Positions 45,715 to 63,168 of a stretch of 64,000 bases of DNA are shown piece by piece; the first letter of the stretch is position 1, and each line of letters begins with the position of its first letter. The translations under genes and the position numbers were made by a program. The DNA comes from Nitrospirota bacterium (GTDB lineage Bacteria; Nitrospirota; Thermodesulfovibrionia; Thermodesulfovibrionales; Dissulfurispiraceae), in contig JBFLWF010000012.1 in assembly GCA_040758355.1 (NCBI GenBank), forward strand, positions 15,870 through 79,869, written 5' to 3'. Below the pieces are notes generated by a model. The model was not told the DNA's origin. It made no database searches and saw only the letters and a program-made list of their open reading frames with translations.

Positions 45715-47055
45715 TTTATCCGGGCCATGCGGTTCTCTATCTTTTAATGATACCCAGACAGTTTGATGATCTCTTATGGACTTCCTCTTTACAGGCAGAG
45801 TAAAGATAAATCTGCTGCCCTTGCCATGTTCGCTCTCCACATGGATCGTTCCTCCATGCATTTCAACGAGCCTCTTTACAATGGAAAGGCCGAGACCTGT
45901 ACCCTCGATCTTCTCCATTCGTTCTGACCGAAGCTGTTCATAGGCATTGAATATGCTCTCATGGTGCTCTGGCGCAATCCCCTTTCCTGTGTCCCAGACG
46001 ATGACCTCTACCGAATCGTTTATCTCCCCTGCCTTTATTCCTGCCTTGCCTCCGTCAGGGGTGTATTTTATGGCATTCTCCAGAAGATTAATGATTATCT
46101 CTCTAAAACGCATCTCATCTCCGCAGCAATATGTGTCCTTGATGTCTTCTGTTTCAAGCGATATATCGATATTTTTATCCCTTGCCTTTAAATAGAGCAT
46201 CCCTACTGTGTCATGGATTGCATCGGAAATCCTGAATGGCTTTATTGATAACTTAATATTTCCGGTTTCTATCTTTGAAAGTTCCATTATTTCGTTGAGG
46301 AGTGCATTTATATGTTCTATGGCCTCGTCTATCCTTTTCCGGCATAGCTCTCTTTCTTCGGCAGCCGTGCTATAAGAGGTATAAAGCAGCGCTGAAAATC
46401 CCCTGACTGCATTAAGCGGCGTTTTTATTTCATGCGAGAGGTTGGCGATAAAGTTAGACTGTGCAATATACAACCGTTTTATTTCTTCCTGTTTTCTAAA
46501 AAGCCTGTCAGATAGGTATGTAACAAACTAGGCTGTAAGTATAAGCGTGCTGATGAACACAGTCCCATAGATGGAAATAACCTCTATTCCTGCAAAGAAC
46601 ATCGGCCTATCTTTGAATATGCCGAAATGTGGCAAAATGCCGATATGCTTTAGCCCTAAAACGGTACTCTGAAGGATTACAGCAAAGGCTGTAAATCTAT
46701 ATGCCCATTTCTTCGGAAGGATAATGCCTGTTATCACGACATGGAAGATATAGTAATAAAGAAACGGGCTGTCGCAACTGCCCGAAAAATAGATTGCAGC
46801 GCTCAGTGCGATATAATCAAGGCCGATCTGTAAAACAGCGTCACCGAAAAGGTTTTCCGAAGGAAGTCTTAATCTACTTTGAAAATATAAATTATAGGCA
46901 ACAACAGGAACGAGGATTATATAAACCGGGAATATAGGGAAATCGAGTTTAAATATCCCTCTTAATGAGTGTGCTGCCACGAATACAGCCGCACACGCCA
47001 GCCATCTGAGGTTTATGAGCCATTTAAGATGTTCCCTTAACTCAGAATTATTCAT
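45691..47055 (-). pseudogene. Membrane histidine kinase interrupted by one in-frame TAG (46528-46530)
   Basis: [42 protein letters not shown] is continuous in frame; HisKA and HATPase motifs. Confidence 0.8.
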
Positions 47056-48652
47056 GCCCTGCGGTCTTAAAGCCTGCTGCAGAATCTCTCAAATCCTCCG
47101 CTATCCTTGTAAGTGCATTTACCTCATGCATTACATCGTCAGCCATCTTCTCCATGTCTTTTGATATGGCCGATGTCTTATCTATATTCTTTGCAACCTC
47201 TTCGGATGCCGACGACTGCTCGTCTACTGCCGTGGCTATCTGGGTTATCTGGTCTCTGACCCTTTGCACAGACTCCACAATGGTATCCAGAACATTTTTT
47301 AAGTTCTTAACATGTCCAACTGCCTTTGTTATACCTTTTGAGGATTCTGTCATTGATTTCGTTGTTTTCCCTGATTCTGTTTGAACAGCGCCTATCTTTT
47401 CTGATATTTCCGATGTCGCTTTTATTGTCCTCTCAGCGAGCTTCCTGACTTCATCGGCTACCACTGCAAATCCCCTTCCCTGCTCACCTGCCCTTGCTGC
47501 CTCGATTGCTGCATTGAGGGCGAGCAAATTTGTCTGGTCTGCAATGTCCTTGATTACCGTGACAATGCCTCCTATTTCCCCTATCCTGCTGTTCAGCTTT
47601 TCAACCATTTCTGCAAGTTCTCCGGTCGATGCATGCACCTCGTTTATTGTTTCAACAGTTAAATCCGTTATCTGTTTGCCGCTTTCTGCTATTTCCATTG
47701 CCTCCGATGACGTATCCGATGCCACTGATGCGTTCTTCGCTATATCGGTGATTGTCTTGCTCATCTCTTCTGCTGCTGTTGCTATCTGGTGGGCCTGGGA
47801 AGATTGATTTTTTGCTCCTTCTGATGTCTTTTCCGTCCTTGTTTCCAATACATCCACTGTTGATACCACTTTGTTTGACGATACGAGTATGCCGTTTATC
47901 ATGTTATTAAAGGACTGGATCATTCTGTTCATGTCGTGTGCGAGGACGCCTATTTCATCTTTACTGTGATAATCTATTGTGGCTCTCAAATCTCCTTCTG
48001 ACAACTGCCTGACCTTTTCTATCAGATGAGTCAATGGCCTGAAGGCAATTGTAACAAGAAAGAATATTGCTCCTGTTACCGACAGCATGCCCATCAGTCC
48101 GAGCCCGAAATAGAGATTGCGGGACGACCTGATTGTGTCAAAAGAACGTGTCAGTGGTATTTTTATGCTTATTGCTCCAAGGACAGTCCCTTCCTCTACA
48201 TTATGACAGGACAAGCAGTTTTTACCCATGTAATTAGATTTTGCGATATATGGGTATACGCCTCTTAAGTACTCCCCTTCAAGCAAAATCTTCTCCATGC
48301 CTTTATCCACAACCTCTCTTTCAATCTCATCCTTTGGATATTCCTCCGGTCTGCCCTTTCCGTAATCCCTGTCAAGGATTTCCGCTCTTATCACATGCAC
48401 ATCTGCGATATGCGACATCTGCTCTAAAAACGGGGGCTTCGCCTCTTTGACATTGCCGGTAATCATCATTGTCGTAAGCGTATTCAATACCGTATCTCTG
48501 AACCCGGCAAGGGTTGTATGCTTTGCTTCGTCAATAACGATGCTTCTGGTCTTGCCTGTTGTTACGAAGATTGTGATTACAATGCCTACAGTGACCAGCA
48601 CTGCAATTGGAACCATTATCTTGCTTTTCAAAGACACATCTCTGATATTCAT
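47048..48652 (-). CDS. Methyl-accepting chemotaxis protein with heme-c sensor (CLSCH)
   Basis: [34 protein letters not shown]; 2 TM. Confidence 0.93.
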
Positions 48653-48668
48653 TTAACCCTCTTTTTCT

Positions 48669-49031
48669 TCAACCTATCCATTCCCTTATCTTTTTATAGA
48701 TGCTCTGAATTTCGAATGGCTTTTCGAAAAAGATGTCGATTCCTATATCACCCATCTCTGTTTTGTTCAGATGACAAAAACCGGAAACTAAAATTGCTTT
48801 CCCTGAAAATCCCCTGCCGTTTCTGAGAAATCTTATTAGTTCGATCCCGTTTACGGGTTCCATTTTGTAGTCGGTGATTATTACGTCATAACAGTCGGGA
48901 TCTATCGATGCCATTACGGCCTCAGGCGAGTTCGTTGCTACAACATTGTAGCCTTTGCCGCAAAGGAACTGCAGCATGGAAATTATAACGAGCGGGTCGT
49001 CGTCCACAAGCAATATGTTTTTTCTAATCAC
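48669..49031 (-). CDS. Single-domain response regulator
   Basis: ILLVDDD, DYKM, KPF; start moved downstream of the sigma54 site. Confidence 0.8.
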   Translation of the reverse strand: MIRKNILLVDDDPLVIISMLQFLCGKGYNVVATNSPEAVMASIDPDCYDVIITDYKMEPVNGIELIRFLRNGRGFSGKAILVSGFCHLNKTEMGDIGIDIFFEKPFEIQSIYKKIREWIG

Positions 49032-49121
49032 CTTAATGCCTTTTATTGGACTAAAAAGGTGAATGGGGTAGGGGTGTGGGGAGAGGGAAACCCCATTCAC
49101 AAACATATGATAATATTCATA

Positions 49122-49247
49122 ATCAAGTATCATGCCAATTTAAAATTCGCTGATAATCAATGTCTTTCTTATTTGTCAGCAAACAAAGGCATTATTTAAG
49201 TTGTAATGATGCAACCTGAAAAACAAAATATGTTGCAGAAATTTAAC
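49122..49247 (-). promoter_or_regulatory. Second sigma54 promoter plus twin enhancer palindromes
   Basis: TGGCAT-N5-TTGAT (49122-49137); GTTGTAATGATGCAAC (49200-49215); GTTGCAGAAATTTAAC (49232-49247). Confidence 0.7.
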
Positions 49248-49256
49248 GGGATGGGA

Positions 49257-50639
49257 TTAGTCTTCTGAATCTATGGCAGAAACAGGAAAGCCGTGCTCTT
49301 TGAGTTTTCTCCAGAGCGTCTCCCTGCTGATTCCAAGCTTCTTTGCAGCTTCCTTCTTTTTGCCGCTGGTCTCTTCGAGGATATGGGCTATTATCTCCCT
49401 CTCGAAGGCCTTTACCCTTTCTGTTAATGGAAGGTCTTTACAGGGTAAGATTGCAATACCTTGATTTATTTCATTCCCCCTGATTTCCACAGGCAGACAG
49501 CATGGCTCTATCATATTGCCTCTACAAAACGTTACGGCCATCTCGATGGCATGTTTTAGTTCTCTTACATTTCCAGGATAATCATATGCCATTAGTCTCT
49601 CCATAGCAGAAGGAGAGACAGTAAGGCTGTCCTTTCCTGTTTCTTTACCGAATGTTTTTACAAAATGCTCCACAAGCAAGGGAACGTCTTCTTTTCTTTC
49701 TCGTAAAGGCGGCAAGGTAATTGGTAAAACATTTATCCTGTAATAAAGGTCTTCTCTGAATTTATCCGCTTTTACCTCTTCCTTCAAATTCTTCCGCGTT
49801 GCATATATAATTCTCACATTTACGCTCAGTGACTCATTTCCACCGAGGCGCTCAAAGGTATGATTTTCAAGCACCCTCAAAAGTTTTGCCTGTAAAGAAA
49901 TCGGCATATCCCCTATTTCGTCAAGAAAGATTGTGCCTCCATCAGCTGCTTCAAACTTGCCCTTTCTCCTCTGAATAGCGCCTGTGAATGCCCCTTTCTC
50001 ATGTCCGAACAACTCCGATTCGAGGAGCGTCTCCGGGATGGCTGCACAGTTGATTTTGACAAAAGGCTTATCCTTCCTCGCACTCAGATTGTGAATGGCA
50101 TTTGCCACCAGTTCCTTTCCTGTTCCGCTTTCGCCGTAAATCATTACAGAAGAATCCGTCTTTGCAATAACATCTATCTTTTCAAATAGCTCCTGCATAA
50201 CAGGGCTGATTCCGATAATGCGTTCGAATTGTTTTTTCTCCCTGACCTCCTCCTTTAGCCTTATATTTTCGAGTTCAAGCCCCCTGTGCTTTATAAACCT
50301 GTCTAAAACAATAAGCAGCTCGGCAGGATCAAAGGGTTTTGAGATATAGTCATACGCGCCTTCCCGCATCGCCTCAACCGCTGTCTTAACATCCGCAAAA
50401 GCAGTGATTACTATAACCCCTGTATCTTGAGCAATATTTTTTACAGCCTTTAACACCTCGATGCCATCGGCGCCAGGAAGCCTGAGGTCTGTTACAACAA
50501 CATCAAAGCTCTCCTTTTCAAAGAGCCTCATCCCCTCCATGCCGTTTTCTGCGCTCACGACCTTATATCCTGCACCTTCAAGGGTACAGGAGATTCCAAG
50601 CCTTACAGAAAGCTCATCCTCTATTACAAGTATCTTCAT
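49257..50639 (-). CDS. Sigma54-dependent response regulator (NtrC/AtoC family)
   Basis: Receiver; [29 protein letters not shown]; Fis HTH. Confidence 0.96.
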
Positions 50640-50706
50640 TGCCCTTGCCTCTGAAAATCTTCGATCCTTGAGGCTTTCTTTTATCAATTTTTGTGCCACT
50701 AAATTT

Positions 50707-52197
50707 TCATGCCCCCATTGGCAATTTTATTTTGAATATCGTTCCAACACCAATAGTGCTCTCTACTTCTATTATACCGCCATGTTGCTCCACTATCCCT
50801 TTGCTCACAGAGAGCCCCAGTCCTGTGCCTTCTCCAACACCTTTTGTCGTAAAAAACGGGTCGAATATATTGGGCATTATTTCAGATGGAATTCCACAAC
50901 CGGTATCTTTAATAGAAACCACACAGAATCCGTTGTCCACTTCCGTTTTAATCGTTAATGTCCCGCTGCCGTTCATAGACTGCAGGGCGTTTATAATAAT
51001 ATTCATAAAGACCTGCGACATTTTGTTTTCGTCGATCATTACATCAGGGATACTGTCTGACAGGTCGTTAACGACTTTGATGTTCTTTTTTGAGGCCGGG
51101 TAACTGAGCAGGACAAGCAGGCGATTTATAAGATTATTCAGATTTACAGGAGCCTTCTCTGTAACCGTCATCCTCGAGAAATCTAAAAGCTGTTCTACGA
51201 TGTTCTTTATTTTCTGGAGGCTATCATTGATTGCCTGAACGAGCTTTTCCTTCGTTAAGTTATCCACATTGGCTTCCATTAGATTTTTAAAACACAGCGT
51301 AATACCGCTCAATGGATTGTTTATCTCGTGCGCAACACCCGAGGCAAGTCGTCCAATGGATACCATCTTCTCTGTCTGGCCGAGCACCTCTACAGTCTTC
51401 TTTCGTTCTCTCTCGGCCTCCCTGAGCCTCTGCATCATCCAGAGAAAGCTCTTCTGAAGCTCGCCAAGTTCATCACGTCTGTCTTCAAACGCTGGAAACT
51501 GCTGTTCGAGATCTCCATGCGTCTTTATGCCATCCATTATCTTTGAAAGCCTTATTACCGGCTTTGAAAGCACTTTTGCTCCAATGCTTATAATCGCAAG
51601 AGAAATTACGGAAAAGAACAGCACAAGCCGTATTATCTCTTTCTTCAGATTGGCTATGGATTCCTGAACCTCCTTTGTGGAGATCCCGATCCTCAAAGCA
51701 CCCCAATTTTTCGTGCTGATATTAAGAGGGGTTGATATATTAATCACGGGGTCGTCTTTAAAACTTGATGCGGTAATAGATGTTTTGAGCGTTGAAAGGG
51801 CATTCAGAGTGTACTTGTCCTGGCAGAACAGTCCAAATTCGGCTATGTTGCTGTGGGCAAGAATATTTCCGCTGTTGTCGATAACAGCTACATACTTTAT
51901 CCTTTTGTCGCGCTCCATTAAATTCATTATGTAATAGTCGAGAAAGTCAACAACATCCTGTTGATCCATCATGCCCAATTCCTTATAAACCATGACATTC
52001 GTCAACATGAGCCTGCTTATTTCGGCAAATGCCTTTCCCTGGTTGATAATGTCCTGCCTGTATAATCTCTCTTCCCTTGAGATGATGGCGAAGCTTCCCG
52101 TTAAGGTGAAAACAAAGATACAGAACGAAGCAACAAGGATGAATTTCCCCTGAAGGCTAAACATCCATACCTTTATTTTTTGAAATATTGTCTTCAC
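50707..52197 (-). CDS. Sensor histidine kinase (HAMP)
   Basis: AHEINNP, N box, FDPFFTTK, GTGLGL. Confidence 0.95.
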   Translation of the reverse strand: MKTIFQKIKVWMFSLQGKFILVASFCIFVFTLTGSFAIISREERLYRQDIINQGKAFAEISRLMLTNVMVYKELGMMDQQDVVDFLDYYIMNLMERDKRIKYVAVIDNSGNILAHSNIAEFGLFCQDKYTLNALSTLKTSITASSFKDDPVINISTPLNISTKNWGALRIGISTKEVQESIANLKKEIIRLVLFFSVISLAIISIGAKVLSKPVIRLSKIMDGIKTHGDLEQQFPAFEDRRDELGELQKSFLWMMQRLREAERERKKTVEVLGQTEKMVSIGRLASGVAHEINNPLSGITLCFKNLMEANVDNLTKEKLVQAINDSLQKIKNIVEQLLDFSRMTVTEKAPVNLNNLINRLLVLLSYPASKKNIKVVNDLSDSIPDVMIDENKMSQVFMNIIINALQSMNGSGTLTIKTEVDNGFCVVSIKDTGCGIPSEIMPNIFDPFFTTKGVGEGTGLGLSVSKGIVEQHGGIIEVESTIGVGTIFKIKLPMGA

Positions 52198-53066
52198 GGT
52201 ATTTTTACGCCTTCTTTATCCAGATATTCCATCATCTTGCGTACAGGCTGGTAATCGGAATCTGCTGCCTCTGCAAATCCATATCTGAATTCTTCATCCC
52301 ACTGCTCCATTATCTTGCGGTGTTCTGGATTGTTATAGTCCAGAGAAAGGAGCGCCCTTTTTATAGCATCAACGAGTTTATATGATGCATCTGCCCGCAC
52401 CACTATAGGCAGCCCGGGTATTGGATCAGAAAAAGCTATGGTCTTCAGTCCCCTGTTCTTAAACCTGTTGGCAACAGAGTCTATGACAACGCCTACGTCA
52501 AAATTCCCCCTCAAAACTTCTCTCGCAACAGAATCGTGGTATCTGAAGTTTGCCCGCCGCGAAAGGTCTCCAAGCCTTATATGCGCATTGGAATACAGAT
52601 AATAAAGGGGTGTGAGGTACCCGGATGTCGATAATTTAGATGCAAAGGCAACAGACCTGCCTTTGAGATCGGAAAGATTGTTTATCCTTGTATTGTCAGA
52701 CCTTGCTATAAAAACGCTTCTGTAATACGGCTTGCCGTCATGCCCTAATGGCTTGAGTATCGGGACTAACTGGCACTGCTGTTTTGCTTCGAGGTATGTA
52801 ACGCCGCCGAGCAATGCAACCTGAACAGTGCCGTCCCTAAGAAAACTTATAATATCCCTGTAGTCCTGACTGAGCTTTAGTTCAAACCTGTATGGCGTAT
52901 TCTTGGTGAGGTAGTCCATCAGAGGCTGGTATTTCTGGTACATCACAATAGGATGATAAAGGGTTATGGCGCTGAAATAAACGGTCTCGGCAGGTTCGGC
53001 AATGGATATAGAAGGAATGGAAAGCAGTATAAGCAGAATAAACAGAATGATACGACTAAAACTCAT
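52194..53066 (-). CDS. PhnD-family periplasmic oxyanion-binding protein
   Basis: YQPLMDYL, DLKG, STSGYL, HDSV; coupled to the HK. Confidence 0.85.
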   Translation of the reverse strand: MSFSRIILFILLILLSIPSISIAEPAETVYFSAITLYHPIVMYQKYQPLMDYLTKNTPYRFELKLSQDYRDIISFLRDGTVQVALLGGVTYLEAKQQCQLVPILKPLGHDGKPYYRSVFIARSDNTRINNLSDLKGRSVAFASKLSTSGYLTPLYYLYSNAHIRLGDLSRRANFRYHDSVAREVLRGNFDVGVVIDSVANRFKNRGLKTIAFSDPIPGLPIVVRADASYKLVDAIKRALLSLDYNNPEHRKIMEQWDEEFRYGFAEAADSDYQPVRKMMEYLDKEGVKIP

Positions 53067-54294
53067 ATCTTAATTGTAAATAAATATTGTCATTTTTATC
53101 CAGTTGCCCGAACTGGCTCCATCTCTCTCCTTCGCCAAAGATGTTCCCTCCTACTGCTGCCCATATGTGGTCGGAGAAGTTATATTTGATCTCCGGATTC
53201 AGCATGTAATCTCCGTCTGACGGACTGTAAAAAGAGAAGAAGCTGAGCCTTAAATTCTGGTGCATTAAAAATTGTGTAAGTCTTACAGTTGCAAGCTGAT
53301 AAAATCTTTTGTCTATAGGAAGTCCGGCAGGCTGATTTTTCTTATATTCTGAATAGTCATGCATGTATTCTCCATAATATTGAAGTCCTATTGTGAAATC
53401 CTCCCATATCTGTTTTTGATAGCCAATAAGAAGCCGTGTCTGAGAATTTGGTATCGTGTAATCTTTTCCGCTTCTGTCCTGCCTTGAGTCATAATAGCCT
53501 GCCTCAAGGCTCAAGACTCCATCCAGAGCCCTTCCCTGAAGGCTCGCACCGTAAACGGATAATTCAGGGTAATGGAAGGTAATTTTAGTTGTGTTATTAA
53601 GGTCATCGGGTATCATATATGGCTTGCGGAAATAGCCCCTGTAGAAATACACCGATGCATCAAAACCTGCTATGTCTCTGTAAACCCTCAAGGCTAATTC
53701 GGTATTTTCAAAGGTTGTGGCAGGGTCTTTTTCTTCTCTATTCGTGACATTCGGCATGGGGTCGAACATGTAAAACCTCTTTGAGTCTGAATAATTGTTT
53801 GGCTCAAAGATTGGTATTGCAATGAATTCAAAGGATGCAAAATCCGGATAGGCGCCAATCTTTATACCGTCAATACCTTTCTTTAAATACTCCAATGGCC
53901 TTCCCGAGAAGAATGCCTCGTAGTCCTTTGGAAATACATCGTTTATAAAAAGAAGGTCTCCAAGCCCCCATGTGATTACCTGCCTGCCTATCCTTAGATC
54001 CCAATTTTTAGCTGTGTAATCTATATAGCCCTCCCTCAGTTCTAAATCTCCTTTTTCATCGATGTGATCAAAGTATGCATCTGTCTTTATAAACAGCCTG
54101 AATGGCTCTTTTGCTCCATCGAGCTTTAATTGAAATCTCTCCTCTGCCCATTTGAAATCTCCGCCATCAGGATTTGTTCTTGTGCTGAAGGAATAATTCC
54201 CCTGCATAAACCCATGCAGGCTGACATCACCTGCATGGGCATGAACTGATACGAGAAGTGTCATGAAAAGCATGAACAGAATGGATCTTTTCAT
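53056..54294 (-). CDS. Outer-membrane beta-barrel (DUF1302-like)
   Basis: Signal peptide, LREGY, GRQVITWG, C-terminal LRYEF. Confidence 0.75.
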   Translation of the reverse strand: MKRSILFMLFMTLLVSVHAHAGDVSLHGFMQGNYSFSTRTNPDGGDFKWAEERFQLKLDGAKEPFRLFIKTDAYFDHIDEKGDLELREGYIDYTAKNWDLRIGRQVITWGLGDLLFINDVFPKDYEAFFSGRPLEYLKKGIDGIKIGAYPDFASFEFIAIPIFEPNNYSDSKRFYMFDPMPNVTNREEKDPATTFENTELALRVYRDIAGFDASVYFYRGYFRKPYMIPDDLNNTTKITFHYPELSVYGASLQGRALDGVLSLEAGYYDSRQDRSGKDYTIPNSQTRLLIGYQKQIWEDFTIGLQYYGEYMHDYSEYKKNQPAGLPIDKRFYQLATVRLTQFLMHQNLRLSFFSFYSPSDGDYMLNPEIKYNFSDHIWAAVGGNIFGEGERWSQFGQLDKNDNIYLQLRYEF

Positions 54295-54713
54295 GCCTGT
54301 TCCTCAAAGTAACGATAAAAACCGGGATAGACCTTTGGTTCCATATAGGCATCCATTACTGAAAATCTATCTACTACTCCCACAAGCTTCTTATCCCTTA
54401 CTATGGGAATAACTGTAAAATTGTTTTCGAGCATTATTTCTATGAGCCTCTCCGCGGGAGTTTCCATATCAGCAGTCATTGGCTCTTTTGACATGATCCT
54501 CTTTGCAGTAAACTCATCCAGCTTAATACCTTCTCTTAAGGCTCCGAGGAGGTCAAATTCTGTTACGATGCCTATGACCTCCATATCCTCATTTATTACT
54601 GGAAGCCCCGGCAGACCGGTTGACATAAACCTATAAGCAATCTCTCTTCCTGTTGCATCCGGCCTTACTGCAACCCTCCTGTGCATAAGCATTATGTGTT
54701 TTGCACTTATCAT
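54291..54713 (-). CDS. CBS-domain protein
   Basis: LPVI..GIVTEFD; IMS..P; IPIV..LVGVV. Confidence 0.88.
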   Translation of the reverse strand: MISAKHIMLMHRRVAVRPDATGREIAYRFMSTGLPGLPVINEDMEVIGIVTEFDLLGALREGIKLDEFTAKRIMSKEPMTADMETPAERLIEIMLENNFTVIPIVRDKKLVGVVDRFSVMDAYMEPKVYPGFYRYFEEQA

Positions 54714-54751
54714 TTTGCCCCTCCTTTTGTCTCCACAGCGGGAAACAATTT

Positions 54752-55402
54752 TTAAAGTTTTCTGGCCAGGGTACACACAAACCCTGCGCCTTCCACTAAT
54801 TGGTGGTGTGCTGTCTCTTTATAAGGCATCTCTGATGGCTGCTGACAGAGTGTTGATGAATATGCCTCAACTGCCATCCCTGTTTTTTCCACCATTTTCA
54901 CCACTTCATCAGTGCTGTAAAACCGTGCATGTTTGTATATGGGATGTCCTTCACCCTTCTTTTTCATATAAAGCTCACCCCATGGGCTTTCTCTATTTAT
55001 TATCCCTACAATCAATCCTCCATCTTTCTTCAGCACCCTTTTTGCCTCTGACAATACCCTCTCAGGATTTTCCACAAAGCAGAGTGTAAAAAGTACGAAC
55101 ACACCGCCGAATGATTCATCATTAAAAGGCAGATTTTCTCCGCTTGCCTCTTTTACATTTATGCCTCGTCTTTCTGCTATTTCCAATACACGAGAAGAGG
55201 GGCCTATGCCAAAATCTATTTCCAATTCCTTTGCAAATCTTCCTGTTCCAACTCCAATCTCAAGAAAGGGTTTTTCAATGCCTTTCATTAAAAGTCTCAC
55301 CGCCTCAACTTCCATTTCAAAAAGCACCCTTCCTTCTGGAGTGTCAAACCATCTGTCATAATCTTCTGCGTATTGGTCAAAGACTTCAGCCACCGAGATC
55401 AT
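54752..55402 (-). CDS. Class I SAM-dependent methyltransferase
   Basis: LEIGVGTG, ENLPF..ESF, RVLK..G. Confidence 0.85.
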   Translation of the reverse strand: MISVAEVFDQYAEDYDRWFDTPEGRVLFEMEVEAVRLLMKGIEKPFLEIGVGTGRFAKELEIDFGIGPSSRVLEIAERRGINVKEASGENLPFNDESFGGVFVLFTLCFVENPERVLSEAKRVLKKDGGLIVGIINRESPWGELYMKKKGEGHPIYKHARFYSTDEVVKMVEKTGMAVEAYSSTLCQQPSEMPYKETAHHQLVEGAGFVCTLARKL

Positions 55403-56187
55403 TCAATCCATTTCTTTGGAGGCTGTTTCAGAAACCTCTCTGAAAACAGGCTGTCATCAATACCGATGTTGTAATCCGATTTTATGTACGCAACTTCTGT
55501 CCTGTGTCCGCTCTGGAGGTTTTTCATTGTCCTTTTTGTGACTGTTGGGAATCCTTTTATATTTTTTACTTCATCTGCTGTAAATACCTTATAAAACTCG
55601 CCTTTTCTGTCATAGTATTCTTCCTTTAAAGGCAGGTAATTAGCCTTATCAACCCATGAGAGTTTGTAGCTGTAATCCACATCTGCTGCCTTTGGAGTGC
55701 TTTTTATTACATAGCAGTCCTTTCCGCCAAGTTTTTCTTCTTTCGCAATTGTGTGTGTATCGTCTTCGATATCCCTTCCGGAGATGTCTTCATATGTAAA
55801 GTCGGAGCCGACAAAGCTTGAGCGTTTGTCCTGCGCAGCAATCCTCCTCACCATGTTTATTGCAGGAACAAAGAGCCACCTGTCATCATCCCTTGCAGGA
55901 TATTTATAGACCATGAATGTCATATCCTTTACATCAGCGGGCTGAAAAAAATACATGAAGAACTTCTGGTCACCGCCAACATCGCCATAATTCTTTCTCA
56001 GCATCGTAAGCTCCCTTATTCTCTCCGCTCCGCCTTTGCTTATAAGCTTCATCATCACTCTTGCCTTGAAGTCTTTTCCCTGATAGAGAAATGCGGCCTG
56101 TGATTTCTTCATAACCTCATCTGCTGTAAGGGCAAAAGCATTTAAAGGTATAAACAACAGCATCAACATCAAAACGTACCTTGCCAT
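55399..56187 (-). CDS. Outer-membrane lipoprotein-sorting (LolA-like) protein
   Basis: QPADVK, DDRWLFVPA, SFVGSDFTYED; accompanies MMPL. Confidence 0.85.
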   Translation of the reverse strand: MARYVLMLMLLFIPLNAFALTADEVMKKSQAAFLYQGKDFKARVMMKLISKGGAERIRELTMLRKNYGDVGGDQKFFMYFFQPADVKDMTFMVYKYPARDDDRWLFVPAINMVRRIAAQDKRSSFVGSDFTYEDISGRDIEDDTHTIAKEEKLGGKDCYVIKSTPKAADVDYSYKLSWVDKANYLPLKEEYYDRKGEFYKVFTADEVKNIKGFPTVTKRTMKNLQSGHRTEVAYIKSDYNIGIDDSLFSERFLKQPPKKWIE

Positions 56188-56204
56188 ATTCTGATTCCTC
56201 CTAT

Positions 56205-56618
56205 TTAACATCCCATCCTCCTGAATGCCTTTATCCTCTTAATTATATTTTCAAGATTAACGTTTAATTTCTCTGATATCTTGTCGCACTCCATCCCTGA
56301 CTTTCTCATATTTATTATTTCATCATTGGTTTTTTCGACAACTCTCATACAGGCTACTATTGCAAGCGCTTCACCCGGCGTAAACTCTTTAACCAGCCTT
56401 TTAATTGTATCTGGTGGAACAGCATGTCCATAGTTGTCTATGAGTTTTTCTTCAAAATCCCTGAGCTGGTCTGGAGTAGATCTTTTTTCTGTCACGTCCT
56501 TCATTAATTTGTTCAACTCATCCATCTCGCTGTTAGCGATAGCAATTACCGGAAGAAAAAACATTAGTAACATCCCTATTGCCAACGCTTTTACTAAATT
56601 TTGTCTGCTTAACCTCAT
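56205..56618 (-). CDS. Exported helical protein ending ...FRRMGC
   Basis: Signal peptide; paralog of 58067-58474. Confidence 0.75.
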   Translation of the reverse strand: MRLSRQNLVKALAIGMLLMFFLPVIAIANSEMDELNKLMKDVTEKRSTPDQLRDFEEKLIDNYGHAVPPDTIKRLVKEFTPGEALAIVACMRVVEKTNDEIINMRKSGMECDKISEKLNVNLENIIKRIKAFRRMGC

Positions 56619-58024
56619 CTTAACCCTCCTTCGCTGTTTTCTGCATGAAGTCCTTTTAAAAAGACTTCATCCGTAGATTTTGTAATATATTCCTTTTTGG
56701 ATACCTTTGCTATGCCGGATCCCTTCTTTATTGTCCAGACGAAGAGAAAAATCAACAGAGCAGTGTAAGCAAGAGCAAAGCCGTATTGCGCGTACTCGTT
56801 GTCAGGAAGAAGTTCAAGCATATTTTTTGCCTCCATGAAGCCGCGGGAAAAGAAGACATCGTCTATCTGGTCTTTAAAAAGCGAATACGGGAGGTAGCCG
56901 AGCATAAAGCCGGGCAGGGCGGTAAGACCTGTCATATATGCCATGCCGAGCCTTGAATATGTCCTAATCTCGCAGCCGAGCATCATAACACTGCCGATTC
57001 CCAGCATGGGACCGCCTACGAGATGTCCGAGATGAAAACCGTATTTGTATTTTCCGGCCTCTACAACTACCGGCACGTCCCATCCGAGGACAATCCATGT
57101 AAAAACTATTGTCAGGTTAAACATAAGTATTGCAACGAGAAGCCCGGCAAAGGGCATCAGTCCTGTAAACATTGTCTGGGTTATCTTTGCTACCTTCATA
57201 GCCTCAAAATGTTTTGGCTTAAAAAGGAGGGACTTTGGTGACATTACAGCACATTCCGTCCCAAATCCTGATTTGGCTATGCCGATGCCGACGAGTAGGC
57301 CGACCAATGTTTTAAGTCCGAGTTCAAACAGCGAAATGCTGCCGATACTGTTAGCCGAATTGCCCTTCAGTGCTGTCCATCCCGCGGAAACAAGGAGCAG
57401 GAGGAAAAAGGCCGTGAATATCAGGCGGACCGGGTCTCTATACGGCTTGTAATCAGGATCATAACTCAATGTTTCGGTCTGATACTCCAGTTCAACGCAT
57501 TTCTGCACCGTTGACTTGACCTCGTGGTGTTTCATGAAACCGCCGGCATTTAATCTTGCCATAAGCAAAAATGCAAGATATGCAAACGGGATGCTCACGA
57601 TAGCCACAACAATGGATGTCAGGCTCATGGCAGGAATGCCTCCGAGGTAATGCCATGCCGTGCACCCCTGTGCAAGTCTGGTTCCGAAACCGAAGATAAC
57701 AGCGCCTATAAAAGAAAGCACCAACACGCGAGGCGGGTATTTGACCCATGTCTTTCGCTCGCGTTCAAGCAGCGTTACAAGGCATCCTCCAAATATAATA
57801 CCGATCAGTATCCAGTGAATATCCGCGCTGTATGTCCGTGTAATAAAATCGGTCCCGCTTATGTTTTCCTCAAGCGTGCCGAACATCTTTGCAAGTCCTG
57901 TTGTTATGGGTATCGGTGTTTCATATTTCAGGAAATACAATACTTCTGCAAGTCCAACAAGAAATCCTCCCCACACAAACGACCATGGTTTTGTAAAAAT
58001 ATATCTCAATTTGTAGCCTCCCAA
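56615..58024 (-). CDS. YeeE/YedE-family sulfur/selenium transporter (two-domain)
   Basis: GFGTRLAQGC, GFGTEC, GIGSVMMLGC; polytopic. Confidence 0.8.
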   Translation of the reverse strand: MGGYKLRYIFTKPWSFVWGGFLVGLAEVLYFLKYETPIPITTGLAKMFGTLEENISGTDFITRTYSADIHWILIGIIFGGCLVTLLERERKTWVKYPPRVLVLSFIGAVIFGFGTRLAQGCTAWHYLGGIPAMSLTSIVVAIVSIPFAYLAFLLMARLNAGGFMKHHEVKSTVQKCVELEYQTETLSYDPDYKPYRDPVRLIFTAFFLLLLVSAGWTALKGNSANSIGSISLFELGLKTLVGLLVGIGIAKSGFGTECAVMSPKSLLFKPKHFEAMKVAKITQTMFTGLMPFAGLLVAILMFNLTIVFTWIVLGWDVPVVVEAGKYKYGFHLGHLVGGPMLGIGSVMMLGCEIRTYSRLGMAYMTGLTALPGFMLGYLPYSLFKDQIDDVFFSRGFMEAKNMLELLPDNEYAQYGFALAYTALLIFLFVWTIKKGSGIAKVSKKEYITKSTDEVFLKGLHAENSEGGLR

Positions 58025-58066
58025 ATTCCCTTGAACTTTTTATTCAGGGACACGCCCTGATTTTAA

Positions 58067-58474
58067 TTACTCTCAGCCTATTCCACTGCGGAAGCTAATC
58101 ACATCCTTGATTACATCTTTAAGCTTTATACCCAACTGACTTGCTATATCCTCCCATCTCTTGCCTGATTTCCTCATGTTGGCAATATCCCTGTAAGGCT
58201 TTTTCGATAGATTGGACATGATGATTATCGTAACCGTGTCTCCTGGCGGAAATTCTTTAATCAGGGTCTCGATCACATCCGGTTTCTGAACCCCCGAAAA
58301 ATAGTCCTTAGCCTTTTTCTCAAATGTCTTGAGGTTCTTTGACTGGTTTTTATTAATCATATTTATCAGCTTTTCCAGTCTCTCGGTCTCTGACAACCTA
58401 CCGGCAAAGGAAGTCAAAGGAAATAAAAAGGTGAATATGAGTAATAAAACCAAAACCTTCCTGACTCTTTCCAT
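58067..58474 (-). CDS. Exported helical protein, candidate selenoprotein ending ...FRSGIG-U-E
   Basis: GGC TGA GAG TAA; paralog has GC at this position; downstream hairpin. Confidence 0.7.
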
Positions 58475-58475
58475 A

Positions 58476-60785
58476 TTATTTTAAACCTCCTTTAAACAGC
58501 CAGCCTCTCATCAACATAACCAGGGCCGGCAGATAGATTATTGTCATTATTGCACTGAGCATCATCATGCTCACTATGAATGCGCCCACAGTAATATACG
58601 GTGTCAGCGGCGCAAGCATCATCACAGCAAAGGATGCTGCAAAGAGCACAGCATTTCTCATTATTCCCTTGCCCGGTCTTGCAGCGGTCCATAATAAAGA
58701 ATCAGTTATGAGTTCGGAATTTGGAGTTTGTTCTGTCAATCTCTGCCTGAACCTGTTTACGAAATGAATGGCAAAATCTACTGCCATGCCGAGAGAAAGA
58801 CACGAAAGCACCGATATGGGCATATCGAATCTCTTTCCTGTAAATCCAATGACCCCATATATGAGCAGGACGGTAAAAATCAAAGGCACATAACTGACTG
58901 TAGCCCATTTAAAGGAACGGAAATTAAACACGAGTATCACAAATACAGCAATGAGGGCAAGGATAAAGCCTCTGACCATATCCCATAGCACCTCATTATT
59001 CCAGACAAGATTGAAATATGCAATCCCGGCTGGTTTCAGATCAAGGGGAATTGGATGCGCCTTTTTGTATTCATCTACAGCCTTTATCACATCTTGCATT
59101 GCCCCGGCATCCCATGTCTTAAGCTGCACCCATATATTCGCCTTTTTAAACGAAGGGTCAACCACATTGTCCAGATCAGAAGGTTTTGCCGACATGCTGA
59201 ATAAAAAGAGATATTGACCTATCGCCTCCTTTGAATCAGGCACTTTATCGCACTTCGGGTCGTCATCATGAAGCACACGGTTTATTCTCTTGACATAGTC
59301 TGCTACAGAAAATGTCTTTCCAACTACCGGCAGCTTCTCGATATGCCTCTGTAGCCCTTCAATGTATTTCATTGTCTCGGGGTTTTTGATAAAATCGTCC
59401 TCTTTCGATATTGCTACTACATAGCCAAGGGATGTGCCTCCGAGCGCCCTGTTTATCTCCCTGTCAGCAACTCGAATTTCGCTGTTCTTCTTGAACCACT
59501 CCACCATGTTGTTATTGACTACTATCCTTGTTATCCCGATGACCGCCAGCACAAAAAGTATGAGACCGACAAGGACTGTGGCCTTTGGTTTATGTACACC
59601 ATAACCGGCAAGATTTCTCAGGAATTGAGATGTCCTGCTCAATGTAATGTCTTCGTCTCTGGATGCCCTTTCTATCTTTTCCTCTTTTACGAAGGTAAAC
59701 ATTGCAGGAATGAAGCTGAAGCTCAAAACCCTGAGCATTACGGTGCCGAATGCAATCAGACCGCCGAAGACCTTCACTGGAATGATGTTCATAAATAAAA
59801 GAACTGCAAAAGCTGCTGCTGTTGCCAGTGCAGTGTATCGCACAGGACGGCCTACTGCATGCATGGTCTCAATGATTGCAGCCTTTTTATCTTTCTTCTC
59901 TTTGAAGCGGAAATAAAACTCATTAAAGATATGAATACTGTCTGTTGCAATGGCCATCAAGAATACAGGAGCCATTGAGCTCATAATGTGGATGGGAAAT
60001 CCGAGGGCTATTAATAACCCCATGCTCCAGACAATGCTTACCATGGCATCCATCATCAGCGTAATGGAAAGGAAAAGATCCCTGAACATAAGGTATCTGA
60101 CAAGGAGCATGACGCCGCCTGCAATCGGAGCGAATATTGCCATCAATTTAAACATCTCTGCGCCGAAGGTATCCCTTGCTACAGGGTCTCCTGCCACATA
60201 GTATTTCTCGTTGCCCTTTTCCTTCTTAATTATTTCTCTGATTTTATCGGCTACCTGTTTACCGTTTGCACCCTTTTCGAGAGGTATATAGATGGCAGTT
60301 GTCTTTCCATCCTTTGAGATAATGCGATTAATGAAAAGAGGATTTTCAAAGAGGTTTTTTTGCAGGGTCTTTATCTCACCTTCTGTTTTTGGGACTTCGG
60401 TCATGAGAGGGGCCACCCTTAAAGTTCCAGCTTCTGCTGTCACATTTGTAATGGTGGGAAAGCTGTTCACATCCCTCGATGCAACGCCCCTGATCTTCAG
60501 TATCTCATCGGTTATCCTCCGTATCTTTCCGAGGGTGTCCTTATTGAGAACACCTTTTTCATTTACCACTCCTAAAACTATCATATCCTCGTACAGTCCG
60601 AAGGTGCTGTCAACCTCATCATTCCAAACCCTCACATCCGATGTTGCAGGAAGCATGTTTTTGGGATTGGTGTCGGTCTTCATTTTTGGAAACTGGGTCA
60701 TAAAGACGATGGACAGGATAATCGTCAAAGCAACTACCAATTTTGGATGTTCAACAGAAAATTCAACAAGCGAAAACTTCCGCAT
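58476..60785 (-). CDS. MMPL/RND-family exporter
   Basis: Two TM blocks with AIATDSIH and GMAVDFAIH. Confidence 0.92.
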   Translation of the reverse strand: MRKFSLVEFSVEHPKLVVALTIILSIVFMTQFPKMKTDTNPKNMLPATSDVRVWNDEVDSTFGLYEDMIVLGVVNEKGVLNKDTLGKIRRITDEILKIRGVASRDVNSFPTITNVTAEAGTLRVAPLMTEVPKTEGEIKTLQKNLFENPLFINRIISKDGKTTAIYIPLEKGANGKQVADKIREIIKKEKGNEKYYVAGDPVARDTFGAEMFKLMAIFAPIAGGVMLLVRYLMFRDLFLSITLMMDAMVSIVWSMGLLIALGFPIHIMSSMAPVFLMAIATDSIHIFNEFYFRFKEKKDKKAAIIETMHAVGRPVRYTALATAAAFAVLLFMNIIPVKVFGGLIAFGTVMLRVLSFSFIPAMFTFVKEEKIERASRDEDITLSRTSQFLRNLAGYGVHKPKATVLVGLILFVLAVIGITRIVVNNNMVEWFKKNSEIRVADREINRALGGTSLGYVVAISKEDDFIKNPETMKYIEGLQRHIEKLPVVGKTFSVADYVKRINRVLHDDDPKCDKVPDSKEAIGQYLFLFSMSAKPSDLDNVVDPSFKKANIWVQLKTWDAGAMQDVIKAVDEYKKAHPIPLDLKPAGIAYFNLVWNNEVLWDMVRGFILALIAVFVILVFNFRSFKWATVSYVPLIFTVLLIYGVIGFTGKRFDMPISVLSCLSLGMAVDFAIHFVNRFRQRLTEQTPNSELITDSLLWTAARPGKGIMRNAVLFAASFAVMMLAPLTPYITVGAFIVSMMMLSAIMTIIYLPALVMLMRGWLFKGGLK

Positions 60786-60800
60786 GAAACCCTCCTTGAG

Positions 60801-60827
60801 CATAAGGGGGACGGAGTCCCCCTTATG
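60801..60827. repeat. 12-bp perfect inverted repeat (REP-like)
   Basis: CATAAGGGGGAC-GGA-GTCCCCCTTATG. Confidence 0.55.
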
Positions 60828-60886
60828 AAATCCCCCTTAAAATAAGGGCATAATATCTTGATAACACGCTTCTTAACATTGCATTC

Positions 60887-62074
60887 CTACGGCAAATTGC
60901 TCATTCCGTATTTCATCTTATAGAGAAAGTATCTTTCAAAGGCTGCTTTAAGCCATTTATAGTGAATGCCGCCTTTAAGCACCGATTCCTGTCTCGGCGG
61001 AAGAACAGGTCTTGCCTTCATGTATGCAGCAGCATTGCCCATATCCATAAGGCACACAACCGACAGTTCCTCCGGTGTCGGCGGTGTCTCATTTTTGATT
61101 TCTGCTGTGATTGTGGCTGCTGCGGTCTTTGCCATTGTTACAGTCATATAACCTGTCTTTGGCACTCCTGTCGGCACAGGAGTCGGCTCAGCAGGAGCAA
61201 TTGCCATTGCAACTCCGATGGCAAAGATATTTGGATATTTCGTATGTCTGTAGTTCCTATCAACAGGTATGAAACCGCGCGGATTGCCGAGTGGCGCAAC
61301 AGCAGGCACGCCCTTAAACGGAGGCGCTATCATGGCGAGCCTAAATGGAATTTTTGTCCCGTCTTTGAGCCTTACCTCTGTGGGGACAACCTCCTCAATA
61401 GCCTGATTTGTTATAAACTTTATCTCCCTTTTTGAAAACTCATCCTCGATGAATCTCTTTGAATTGCCGAGTCCTCCGATGCCGAAGTGGCCTGCATAAG
61501 GCTCGGATGTCAGGTACAATATAGGCACCTTATGCCTTATCCTTCTCTTTCTCAATTCTGCATCCATCTCAAAGACAAGCTCGTATGAAGGGCCGAAACA
61601 GCTTACTCCCTGAGCAGAGCCTATGATTATGGGGCCCGGTTCTTCAAGGAGTTTCTTCCATGAAAGATTGGTCTTTACAGCATGATCAAGAGTGAATGTG
61701 CAGTCGGTGTATCCTTTATCAGGGCCAAGGCCGGGTATTTCATCAAAAGAAAGATGCGGGCCGGTTGATATTATGAGATAGCCGTATGGAATCTCTCTTG
61801 TGGCAGTAAATACCTTTGATGCATCAGGGATGATCTCTTTTGCAGCCTCATGAATAAAACCTATCCCTTTAGATTTAAGGATCTCTCCAGCATTGAGCTT
61901 GATATCATCTGGTTTCCTCCACCCCATAATCAGCCAGGGCAGGGAAGGCAGAAAGACAAACCTTTCATCATCGCTGACAACGGTTATCTCTGCTTCTTTT
62001 CCAAGAAGTCTTTTCAATTCAAAGGCAGCAGTAAGTCCGCCGAAAGAACCCCCGAGTATTACTATTTTCGCCAC
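60887..62074 (-). CDS. sqr: Sulfide:quinone oxidoreductase (type III-like)
   Basis: GGSFGG, SCFGPSYE, GVPKTGYM, VCLMDMG. Confidence 0.85.
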   Translation of the reverse strand: MAKIVILGGSFGGLTAAFELKRLLGKEAEITVVSDDERFVFLPSLPWLIMGWRKPDDIKLNAGEILKSKGIGFIHEAAKEIIPDASKVFTATREIPYGYLIISTGPHLSFDEIPGLGPDKGYTDCTFTLDHAVKTNLSWKKLLEEPGPIIIGSAQGVSCFGPSYELVFEMDAELRKRRIRHKVPILYLTSEPYAGHFGIGGLGNSKRFIEDEFSKREIKFITNQAIEEVVPTEVRLKDGTKIPFRLAMIAPPFKGVPAVAPLGNPRGFIPVDRNYRHTKYPNIFAIGVAMAIAPAEPTPVPTGVPKTGYMTVTMAKTAAATITAEIKNETPPTPEELSVVCLMDMGNAAAYMKARPVLPPRQESVLKGGIHYKWLKAAFERYFLYKMKYGMSNLP

Positions 62075-62168: not shown

Positions 62169-62450
62169 TTAAAACATTCCCACTACCTTATCCTCTTTTA
62201 CCATAAAATCCACAAGGGCATCGTAACCTATTTCCTTTATCCCTTTGTCCATATCCCCGGAACTCAATCCCCTTAAGCGCGCATCCTCACCAAGCACAAA
62301 TGCCGTACCGCAGAAGCCTTCGAGCCTCTCCTTCTGAGCAAAATACACGGCGTTTTGCATCAGGCAAATGTCTGCAGCCATGTCCCTCGCCAGTTTTACA
62401 CCCCTGCTACCTTCCGGAGTATCCGGTGCACTTTTTATAATCACAAGCAT
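62169..62450 (-). CDS. DsrH/TusB-like protein
   Basis: LMQNAVY, EDARLRG, IGYDALVD. Confidence 0.8.
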   Translation of the reverse strand: MLVIIKSAPDTPEGSRGVKLARDMAADICLMQNAVYFAQKERLEGFCGTAFVLGEDARLRGLSSGDMDKGIKEIGYDALVDFMVKEDKVVGMF

Positions 62451-62460
62451 AAATACCTCC

Positions 62461-62814
62461 CTAAAAAATCATGGTTGTATCCGTTCCTTTAATAAGCTCT
62501 GCAATCTCAGAGCCATTTGCAATAATCACCCCTTCCACCAGGTTGTCAGTTTCGAGTTGCTCATCCTTTATGGATGTTTTGTCAGCATAGACATCAACAC
62601 CCATGTCGATGCAATCTTTTATTCCAGCCTCTATGCTTGAATATTCGGTATTGGATATGTCCTGCCCCTTTCGTGCTGCATTCACACCTCCGTCCACGAG
62701 TATCAACTTCACACTCATGTCCTCGATTATTCCTCCGAGGGCATGACGGATTGCTTCTGGCGCATCAACAGTACCGTACGGTGGTCTTCTTAAAATTATG
62801 CTTATGCTTCCCAT
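62461..62814 (-). CDS. DsrF/TusC-like protein
   Basis: RRPPYGT..EAIR, DGGV. Confidence 0.8.
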   Translation of the reverse strand: MGSISIILRRPPYGTVDAPEAIRHALGGIIEDMSVKLILVDGGVNAARKGQDISNTEYSSIEAGIKDCIDMGVDVYADKTSIKDEQLETDNLVEGVIIANGSEIAELIKGTDTTMIF

Positions 62815-62823
62815 ATACTCCCC

Positions 62824-63168
62824 CTATACACCGAAATTTAAAAAAATGGGATTTGCCTTGATTACATTAAAGAGCCCTTTCAAAGAGCTCATCTCCCCGC
62901 CTTCGACAGAATCCTCTTCCGCAAGACCGCGGAGCTGCATACAGCCTGTTCATATATCAACCTTGAGCCCCCTGCCCACGAGGTCTTCCAGTGCGGACAA
63001 TGCCCGCGGAACCTGCCCTTTGACAATTGAGAAAACACCGTCTCCAGACGCAACAAGCCTCACCTTTTGTCCCTTTTTAAGGGCAGCATCTGCGAGCTTG
63101 AATATGGTGTGGGTGTTTTCAAAACTGTACGGCGTTGTTGAAAGAAACATCACTATCTCCCTTTCCAT
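62824..63168 (-). CDS. DsrE/TusD-like selenoprotein candidate (KVDI-U-TGC-MQLRG)
   Basis: Read-through of UGA 62950-62952 restores a 114-aa DsrE ending 10 nt before the next ATG; GGTC-loop hairpin. Confidence 0.9.

Follow-up and report, generated by a model that had tools for sequence, protein, structure and literature searches.

A predicted Nitrospirota selenoprotein family with penultimate selenocysteine, encoded beside YeeE-type transporter genes

Described systems and the window locus

For the transporter YeeE a relay of cysteine residues running from the outer to the inner side has been described, for which the periplasmic donor is presented as an open question (PMC11073785, PMC11582611). 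Its first relay residue, Cys293, lies on the side away from the cytoplasmic YeeD (PMC11073785). How periplasmic sulfane sulfur gets to the YeeE/SoxT transporters and how polysulfide enters and passes through the periplasm are presented as unsettled, the former in PMC11582611 and the latter in PMC13510729. Here we analysed a gene predicted to encode a secreted helical selenoprotein (positions 58067-58474, minus strand), which neighbours a yeeE gene in a window of 64,000 nucleotides (nt), i.e. the whole stretch of DNA considered, from contig JBFLWF010000012.1 (15,870-79,869) of a Nitrospirota bacterium. Its genome is referred to as G000 and the loci of its relatives by L-numbers. The gene very probably represents a real and new selenoprotein family with selenocysteine (Sec) in the penultimate position, a variant of the bacterial selenoproteins carrying Sec at the C-terminus.

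In agreement with the original prediction, the yeeE gene (56615-58024, minus strand) is flanked by genes for two paralogous helical proteins with predicted signal peptides, and the two C-termini as well as a hairpin at 58044-58060 without a T-tract on the coding strand are present as it had described them. The transporter of 469 amino acids (aa) matches PF04143 (Sulf_transp) with 74 bits at a cut-off of 27, its start probably being the TTG at 58009. The open reading frame (ORF) at 58073-58474 comprises 133 aa when read to its UGA and ends FRSGIG-TGA followed by GAG and TAA; read-through would yield a protein of 135 aa ending FRSGIG-U-E. The second gene (56205-56618, minus strand) was assigned by translation, BLASTP and homolog searches to a predicted secreted Cys paralog of 137 aa ending FRRMGC-TAA. 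Both proteins share an identity of 33% over 126 aa (E 5e-23, BLASTP), and the sole significant tblastn match of each in the genome is the other. This two-paralog layout is a rare one, found in the window and at L020 only.

Selenocysteine is reportedly found only a few residues away from the stop codon in UXX-star family 2, HUGP/GUXX-star, KCU-star and HgcB. As presented in PMC13188914, these families (NF041211, GxGU, for UXX-star family 2; NF033934 for KCU-star; NF040864, GVGU, for HgcB) have a GxGU-type motif and the pairing of Cys and Sec in common with the new family. In contrast to UXX-star, KCU-star and HgcB, the new family is all-helical, carries a predicted signal peptide, ends U-x-stop or U-stop with a single Sec and is encoded in a sulfur-trafficking operon of Nitrospirota. 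A search with the read-through protein retrieved none of the NCBIfam families at E 0.01, including the UXX-star, KCU-star and HgcB models. The new family would add to the known selenoproteins one that is truncated by standard gene calling and combines Sec next to the C-terminus with a predicted signal peptide.

With SoxY (PF13501) the new family seems to share the periplasmic location, which is predicted for its own members, and a C-terminal motif of small residues and Cys, which reads GGCGG in the SoxY of G000. SoxY is a beta-sandwich, whereas the structure model of the new family is all-alpha; moreover, neither soxZ nor another sox gene occurs in its operon, and Sec would replace Cys in 22 of 41 members. 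Compared with PF13501 the family gave no match at E 0.1, and the SoxY of G000 is encoded elsewhere. SoxY-bound sulfur has been proposed as the donor for the YeeE-like SoxT1A (PMC11582611), and the term "swinging arm" is used for SoxY in PMC11237559.

The TusA-like YeeD/TsuB is likewise a small Cys-bearing partner encoded beside yeeE and extends the Cys relay (PMC11073785). It is a cytoplasmic alpha/beta protein with an N-terminal CPxP motif, whereas the new family is helical with a C-terminal Cys or Sec. Since the latter is predicted to be periplasmic and YeeD is cytoplasmic, the new family would act on the opposite face of YeeE. ExtJ of the Geobacter extHIJKL cluster (NF040942), a small protein without assigned function, is encoded next to genes for a rhodanese, a porin and a selenoprotein (PMC5877670); it shows no sequence similarity to the helical family, the common features being the tail chemistry and the type of neighbourhood.

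The YTD or yeeE-tusA-dsrEFH type II clusters (PMC13293266) combine yeeE with dsrEFH-like genes in Nitrospirota carrying dsrAB, as is the case here. The window operon differs from them in that no tusA was seen, that genes for an MMPL protein, a LolA-like protein, a barrel protein and the new family are present in addition, in most loci together with a rhodanese gene, and that its DsrE carries a UxxC motif. The terms "selenocyst" and "rhodanese" do not occur in the main text of PMC13293266, where the lineage is proposed to reverse the Dsr pathway.

The in-frame UGA codon and its downstream hairpin

All counts refer to 41 distinct members for which DNA was available, weak profile matches of about 22-32 bits being excluded throughout. 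Twenty-two of these members end with Gly and 19 with Cys. Every Gly-ending member stops at TGA, and TAA or TAG after the Gly tail was found in none of the 22; the stop codons of the Cys-ending members are TAA (7), TAG (6) and TGA (6). Past the TGA, 21 of the 22, namely all 21 GIG-type genes, continue with one codon for either Asp (8) or Glu (13) before a second stop, which was TAA in 15, TGA in 3 and TAG in 1 of the first 19 GIG-type genes examined. The window conforms to this pattern with GAG (Glu135) and the presumed true stop TAA at 58067-58072 (minus strand). The 22nd member, L151, belongs to a divergent lineage and reads QRTSG-TGA-TAA. As a measure of the chance level, the TGA is followed by GAN and a stop in 7 of the 950 TGA-ended ORFs of at least 120 aa in G000. 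A pattern of Asp or Glu followed by any stop codon is expected only with translation of these codons.

The UGA of the window (58073-58075, minus strand), presumably Sec134, is located at position F+6 from a conserved Phe and aligns without gaps with the Cys of five clusters; it shares the Cys column of homologs ending KMSGC, KSAGC, KIAGC or NTASC. In the group of the window Cys paralog, the Cys is found at F+5, one residue shorter. None of the 22 Gly-ending members contains a Cys in the mature body, the mature chain of the window Sec form being devoid of Cys apart from the UGA position, and the window Cys paralog has two Cys besides that of its tail.

A hairpin of the bacterial selenocysteine insertion sequence (bSECIS) type with a stem of 6 base pairs (bp) and the loop CGUGU (TCAGGG-CGTGT-CCCTGA; 58044-58060, minus strand) lies entirely 3' of the stop codon, its loop beginning 18 nt past the UGA. 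With a folding energy of -8.3 kcal/mol it agrees in all of these values with the bSECIS model as given in PMC13188914 (loop of 3-9 nt, stem of 4-16 bp, G in the first two loop positions, spacing of 16-37 nt, minimum free energy of -7.5 kcal/mol or lower). A hairpin with a GU loop 16-21 nt past the UGA was detected in all 22 Gly-ending members, with a stem of at least 5 bp in 21 of them (20 of the 21 GIG-type orthologs), and in 1 of the 19 Cys forms; the chance level for such a hairpin with at least 5 bp, determined at ordinary TGA ends of G000 over a slightly narrower search range, is 40 of 946. In the divergent L151, the hairpin found at this distance from the UGA differs from that of the others.

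In an alignment of 19 sequences 86.8% of the cells pair and 13 are changed on both sides, a level reached by none of 500 shuffles, although the structure was drawn from the window sequence, which biases the measure toward that sequence. Sliding the pairing register lowers every covariation measure, the best values being obtained at slide 0. Furthermore, in a relative with less than 95% identity, representing independent DNA, positions 58047 and 58057 are both changed with the pair being kept and UGA-GAG-UAA intact. Because the conserved UGA and the SECIS-type hairpin sit where homologs have Cys, the product of 58067-58474 is very likely read through to a Gly-Sec-Glu end. Based on this combination of UGA, hairpin and Cys homologs, the insertion of Sec at the UGA, as originally predicted, appears highly probable. 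The putative SECIS is here free of coding constraint; its compensatory changes would provide a clean collection of natural variants for testing the rules of bacterial SECIS elements.

Two observations call for caution in this interpretation of the UGA. The LolA-like neighbour is also terminated by TGA in 13 of 16 loci, and a conserved TGA alone is thus not decisive; the stops of the MMPL, yeeE and rhodanese genes of the same operons vary freely. Moreover, in a tree of 31 rows, from which signal peptides and the last four residues had been trimmed, a single branch (86/88) separates the GIG-UGA genes from the rest. Since, in addition, the 35 operon loci represent one orthologous operon, the counts given above are not independent of each other.

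Alternatively, the UGA might be a true stop, the protein ending with GIG and the hairpin serving as an element of mRNA stability, as an antisense terminator or as a repetitive extragenic palindromic (REP)-like element, which we consider very improbable. The database proteins of the GIG subgroup all end at GIG, which is not evidence for a plain stop because gene callers stop at UGA. The folding of the window hairpin is not exceptional for its composition, as 9 of 200 shuffles are equally stable and the z-score amounts to only -1.95, and the hairpin is scored as a terminator of the antisense strand. However, the spacer yielding the T-tract, which is found on the antisense strand only, is not conserved among the orthologs, and the terminator reading was rejected. 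A plain stop would also leave aside that Asp and Glu are the only residues encoded directly past the UGA and that a stop codon, any of the three, comes next, that the hairpin is missing from the Cys forms occupying the same operon slot, and that the hairpin of L151 is a different one at an equal distance.

The original prediction had furthermore cautioned that the hairpin resembles the REP-like motif GGGACAGTCCC, of which the genome contains 46 copies, many of them forming direct-repeat pairs with a distance of about 37-58 nt and conserved flanks. This caveat was dismissed: the 11-mer of the hairpin occurs once in the genome and lacks the REP flanks, those of the REP-like copies listed being different. 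A position-independent repeat was rejected as well, the distance to the UGA being fixed in the orthologs. A search of Rfam yielded two matches far below the gathering score and no SECIS family. For comparison, 8 of the 11 DsrE UGAs of the same operons have a loop of the CGTG type some 21 nt further 3', and the UGA of selD in G000 has a GTC loop.

The genome G000 carries selA, selB, selD (selD itself with a TGA) and the tRNA-Sec gene selC. Of the 20 genomes counted as hosts of UGA forms, a count outside which two loci from metagenomes stand, all carry selB and 19 carry selA. The tabulation of C-termini against selB, proposed beforehand, therefore gave the expected outcome with regard to both the stop codons and the hosts. 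As a test, the co-occurrence with selB is weak, since selA, present in 192 of the 401 genomes of the phylum, is found in nearly all genomes of the class, and hosts with only Cys forms also carry selB.

Family extent and predicted structure

Among 1.84 billion representatives, a deep profile search retrieved 14 clusters matching over the full length, all with E values of at most 4e-16. In nine of them a Cys is located at the end or at most three residues from it (AAGC, KSAC, AVAC, RASC, SGCA, SGCG, IAGC, SAGC, ASCSGI), and four terminate at the Gly immediately preceding the Cys position (GIG, AGTG, KAIG, RASG). The remaining cluster, P0027, has a divergent C-terminus belonging to neither the Cys nor the Gly class. 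The Gly-ending P0019, P0023 and P0025 were without DNA and stand outside the stop-codon counts. Because the residue preceding the tail Cys is Gly, Ala or Ser, the "GC" tail is not a strict one. The excluded weak matches include L031, L041-L045, L049 and L050 as well as 89 of the 103 matches of the deep search; those inspected have only a short two-helix motif in common with the family and lack the tail.

All named members belong to the Nitrospirota. At E 1e-8, matches to the family were obtained for 36 of the 390 class genomes, only weak ones for two of them, and at E 0.001 for 15 of the 401 phylum genomes, nine of which gave strong matches. Neither paralog matched a family of Pfam or NCBIfam, the best E values of the Cys paralog (0.007 and 0.004) all being under the cut-off, and a sequence search of the PDB revealed no family, its best matches, over 38 positions, being to designed helical repeats. 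None of the 119 families tabulated in PMC13188914 (2026) was recognisable as the present one. The originally claimed lack of recognition is in line with these searches and with the literature covered, in which no paper on the family was found; the supplements of BSepDB (PMC13326102) and deep-Sep (PMC12013277) lie outside this scope and may bear on its novelty.

An AlphaFold2 model, built from an input of 14 sequences without the U and E residues, is all-helical with a signal helix followed by seven helices (mean predicted local distance difference test score 86, predicted template modelling score 0.74). Foldseek detected nothing in the PDB at E 0.001. The best hit of a fold search (Z 5.5, root mean square deviation 3.2, 69 aligned residues) did not stand out, which is no evidence for a new fold, and the best match in the ESM Atlas (0.89) is a Nitrospirota cluster, possibly the protein's own. 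A hydrophobic N-terminal stretch was found in 39 of the 41 members, the other two being partial matches; signal peptides were judged by a crude hydrophobicity test and not by a dedicated predictor. The flexible C-terminal arm of the original prediction would be short, the last helix of the model extending to residue 132, with lower confidence at the final three residues.

Operon context and putative role in sulfur transfer

The operon of the window comprises, in this order, genes for ArsR, a DsrE-like protein, DsrE(UxxC), DsrF, DsrH, an oxidoreductase similar to sulfide:quinone reductase (SQR), MMPL, the Sec form, YeeE and the Cys paralog, followed by those for a LolA-like protein, a methyltransferase, a CBS protein, a barrel protein, a binding protein and a two-component pair. 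It is largely conserved among the orthologous loci. The window genes given in the following are located on the minus strand. The MMPL/RND-type membrane protein (58476-60803) is encoded directly upstream of the family gene in most orthologous loci. The nearest NCBIfam model of the flavin adenine dinucleotide-dependent oxidoreductase (60887-62074) is the type III sulfide:quinone reductase, with 97 bits at a cut-off of 525. Family scans identified DsrH-like (62169-62450) and DsrF-like (62461-62814) proteins, and the DsrE-like gene (62824-63168) has, as part of a UxxC motif, an in-frame TGA at 62950-62952, so that it would encode the second selenoprotein predicted in the operon. Its read-through sequence is LKVDI-U-TGC, and all 11 orthologs have the TGA. 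Selenoproteins of the DsrE-like UxxC type form a family described before; in the present case the DsrE belongs to a DsrEFH-like set. Downstream, the LolA-like periplasmic protein (55399-56211) matches PF17131 with 225 bits, and the predicted outer-membrane barrel protein (53056-54294) shows weak matches to Wzi, DUF1302 and OMP families, all under the cut-off.

Among the fetched loci of the 41 members, which vary in length, yeeE and the MMPL gene were each found in 35 and a signal-peptide-bearing single-domain rhodanese gene in 31, the latter adjoining the family gene in most loci. In the SGCA subgroup the family gene is placed between the rhodanese gene and yeeE. Other neighbourhoods deviate: L151 lies between genes for Psr/Phs-like A and B subunits and NrfD and a three-domain rhodanese, L133 sits among molybdoenzyme genes, and L051 and L150 are preceded by a large gene of the outer-membrane type, which in the case of L051 is a DUF3373 gene. 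The genome G000 possesses dsrAB and a sox cluster. In the latter (contig C11, about 46400-56600, minus strand; scanned against families were soxY and the dsrA of G000) genes for a thioredoxin-like protein ending KGC, cytochromes, SoxY and SoxZ-like and SoxB-like proteins are located among genes of molybdoenzymes of the dimethyl sulfoxide reductase type.

Taking this context into account, the family seems most likely, among the readings weighed, to be a periplasmic sulfane-sulfur carrier working in the manner of SoxY, to which we assign a probability of roughly 0.55. SelB would bind the hairpin, which lies 3' of the stop, and direct Sec to the penultimate position; the protein would be exported, its terminal selenol or thiol being the only conserved chalcogen residue. 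The tail might then be loaded with sulfur from polysulfide, either made by the SQR-like enzyme or entering from outside, probably through the periplasmic rhodanese encoded alongside in most loci. The sulfur could be passed to the outer cysteine of YeeE (Cys121) and relayed to the cytoplasmic DsrEFH and the Dsr pathway, the receiving DsrE being itself a predicted selenoprotein. In other loci other periplasmic partners may be involved, e.g. a Psr/Phs-like reductase. The Sec form would likely work together with the Cys paralog, a SoxY-type arm being placed on an unrelated helical scaffold. Of the single steps, a route from SQR via YeeE to DsrEFH has been proposed (PMC13293266) and a hand-over from SoxY to SoxT has been considered (PMC11582611).

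On the side of the transporter, Cys121, Cys258 and Cys351 are invariant in 16 orthologs of the window YeeE. Its halves are swapped compared with the solved structure 6LEO, the N-terminal part corresponding to PF04143 positions 170-303 and the C-terminal part to 22-149, and in the alignment Cys121 falls into the Cys293 region of that structure. A direct docking of the tail on YeeE is doubtful. The original prediction, in which the proteins load or unload YeeE, is supported as regards the synteny with yeeE and seems too narrow in the light of the Psr/Phs-like rhodanese operon and of the two members behind outer-membrane-type genes; the more general role as a carrier of sulfur or selenium is plausible, judged from context only. 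With a soluble candidate of 110 residues that exists in natural Cys and Sec versions, the question of sulfur delivery becomes testable in vitro.

Several points weigh against the assumed carrier function at YeeE. The modelled tail extends only about five residues past a helix, the window itself lacks the rhodanese gene, and no tusA was found among the operon genes examined. Six of the 41 members are without yeeE in the fetched locus, and the MMPL gene is linked as tightly as yeeE. L024 and L053 retain the MMPL, LolA-like and barrel genes but lack both yeeE and the rhodanese gene, and their genomes, which are 77% and 93% complete, yielded no ortholog of the window YeeE. The latter loci, the frequent position of the MMPL gene directly upstream and the location of L051 and L150 would fit a selenoprotein carrier that has its true partner in the MMPL/LolA-like/outer-membrane module rather than in YeeE. 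The small ExtJ, encoded beside the porin ExtI and the rhodanese ExtH (PMC5877670) and weakly matching another Gly-Cys-tail protein of G000, points in the same direction. Given that the gene of the SGCA subgroup is inserted between rhodanese and yeeE and that unrelated Gly-Cys-tail proteins track yeeE loci, we hold such a partnership to be quite unlikely.

A function as periplasmic thiol or selenol redox partner or as metal(loid) ligand instead of a sulfur carrier is suggested by the GxGU and GVGU motifs of UXX-star family 2 and HgcB, in which Sec may be a metal ligand (PMC13188914), by the ArsR-type regulator and the methyltransferase of the operon, by TlpA-like genes in some loci and by the two further Cys of the window Cys paralog. 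We regard it as unlikely, as no Sec form contains a CxxC or UxxC pair or a second Cys, and the neighbours are genes of sulfur trafficking and not of metal resistance.

At L015, L019 and L054 selD-like and sulfite-exporter-like genes were noticed by eye in or beside the operon. The selD-like genes, recognised by sequence, might indicate a selenium-specific route of uptake or delivery, taking selenite or selenide to SelD, as might the presence of two or more UGA genes in the operon, the weak match of the binding protein to a putative selenate ATP-binding cassette binding protein (95 bits, cut-off 250) and that of YeeE to the selenium YedE/FdhT (31 bits, cut-off 350). Both model matches are far under the cut-off, Cys versions occupy the same operon slot in Sec-competent genomes, and the SQR-like, DsrEFH and Psr/Phs-like neighbours suggest bulk sulfur metabolism in a genome with dsrAB and soxY; a selenium route is therefore improbable.

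Beyond the helical family, 16 of the 848 ORFs of G000 crudely predicted to be secreted end GC(x0-2) or G-TGA-x-stop. Four of these adjoin three of the four yeeE loci of the genome and represent three unrelated scaffolds. In the relatives a Gly-Cys-tail protein was found within 1.5 kb in 11 of the 29 best-scoring canonical yeeE loci compared with 0 of 29 mscS loci; counted by secreted ORF, the values are 11 of 36 near yeeE and 0 of 11 near mscS. This test was devised post hoc from G000 and covers one yeeE clade in related genomes, which likewise counts against its weight. Since the genomes are kin and the yeeE loci mostly orthologs, the pairing of yeeE and Gly-Cys tails is supported but not proven to be general.

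In a wider and tentative view, unrelated secreted proteins sharing only a C-terminal tail of a small residue and Cys or Sec might deliver sulfur in the periplasm of anaerobic sulfur bacteria to YeeE-type channels, to rhodaneses and to polysulfide reductases. The helical Sec family would then be a Sox-independent counterpart of SoxY and a periplasmic mirror of YeeD, Sec having been gained at least twice at the tail, and genomes with two paralogs would run selenol and thiol carriers together.

One of the further Gly-Cys-tail loci (G000, contig C4, 90483-91880, plus strand; also L056) contains a canonical YeeE gene with two in-frame TGAs, followed by a gene for a secreted Lys/Asp-rich protein of 74 aa ending AIEGC, which gave a weak full-length match to ExtJ (22 bits, cut-off 52.5). 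The proteins found at 11 of the 29 yeeE loci of the relatives resemble this one. At another one (contig C15, 42041-44200, plus strand; L060) a secreted protein of 158 aa ending PPGVGGC, for which no Pfam or NCBIfam family was found, is encoded directly upstream of YeeE and a TusA-like gene, and rhodanese-like and DsrE-like genes are present as well. Other GC-tail proteins of G000 are located near genes that look rhodanese-like or barrel-like.

Additional in-frame TGA codons were observed in G000 and at related loci. Two paralogous secreted rhodanese-like genes on contig C9 (about 58600-60000 and 60100-61550, minus strand) read IFYCAGPT-TGA and IFYCGGVT-TGA and are each followed 3' by a hairpin of 6-7 bp, so that they likely encode selenoproteins. 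At L022 and L054 a gene for a small YgaP-like membrane protein (PF11127) is located 3' of yeeE. It reads FTNW-TGA-PMM in two distinct sequences and FTNWCP in eight, a possible further Cys/Sec pair that was not recognised in the 119-family table of PMC13188914. Further in-frame TGAs occur downstream of the family gene at L023 and L024 and at L026 and L054, in genes for a Cys-rich oxidoreductase-like protein (SCP-TGA-CVN) and a TlpA-like protein (W-TGA-PHC).

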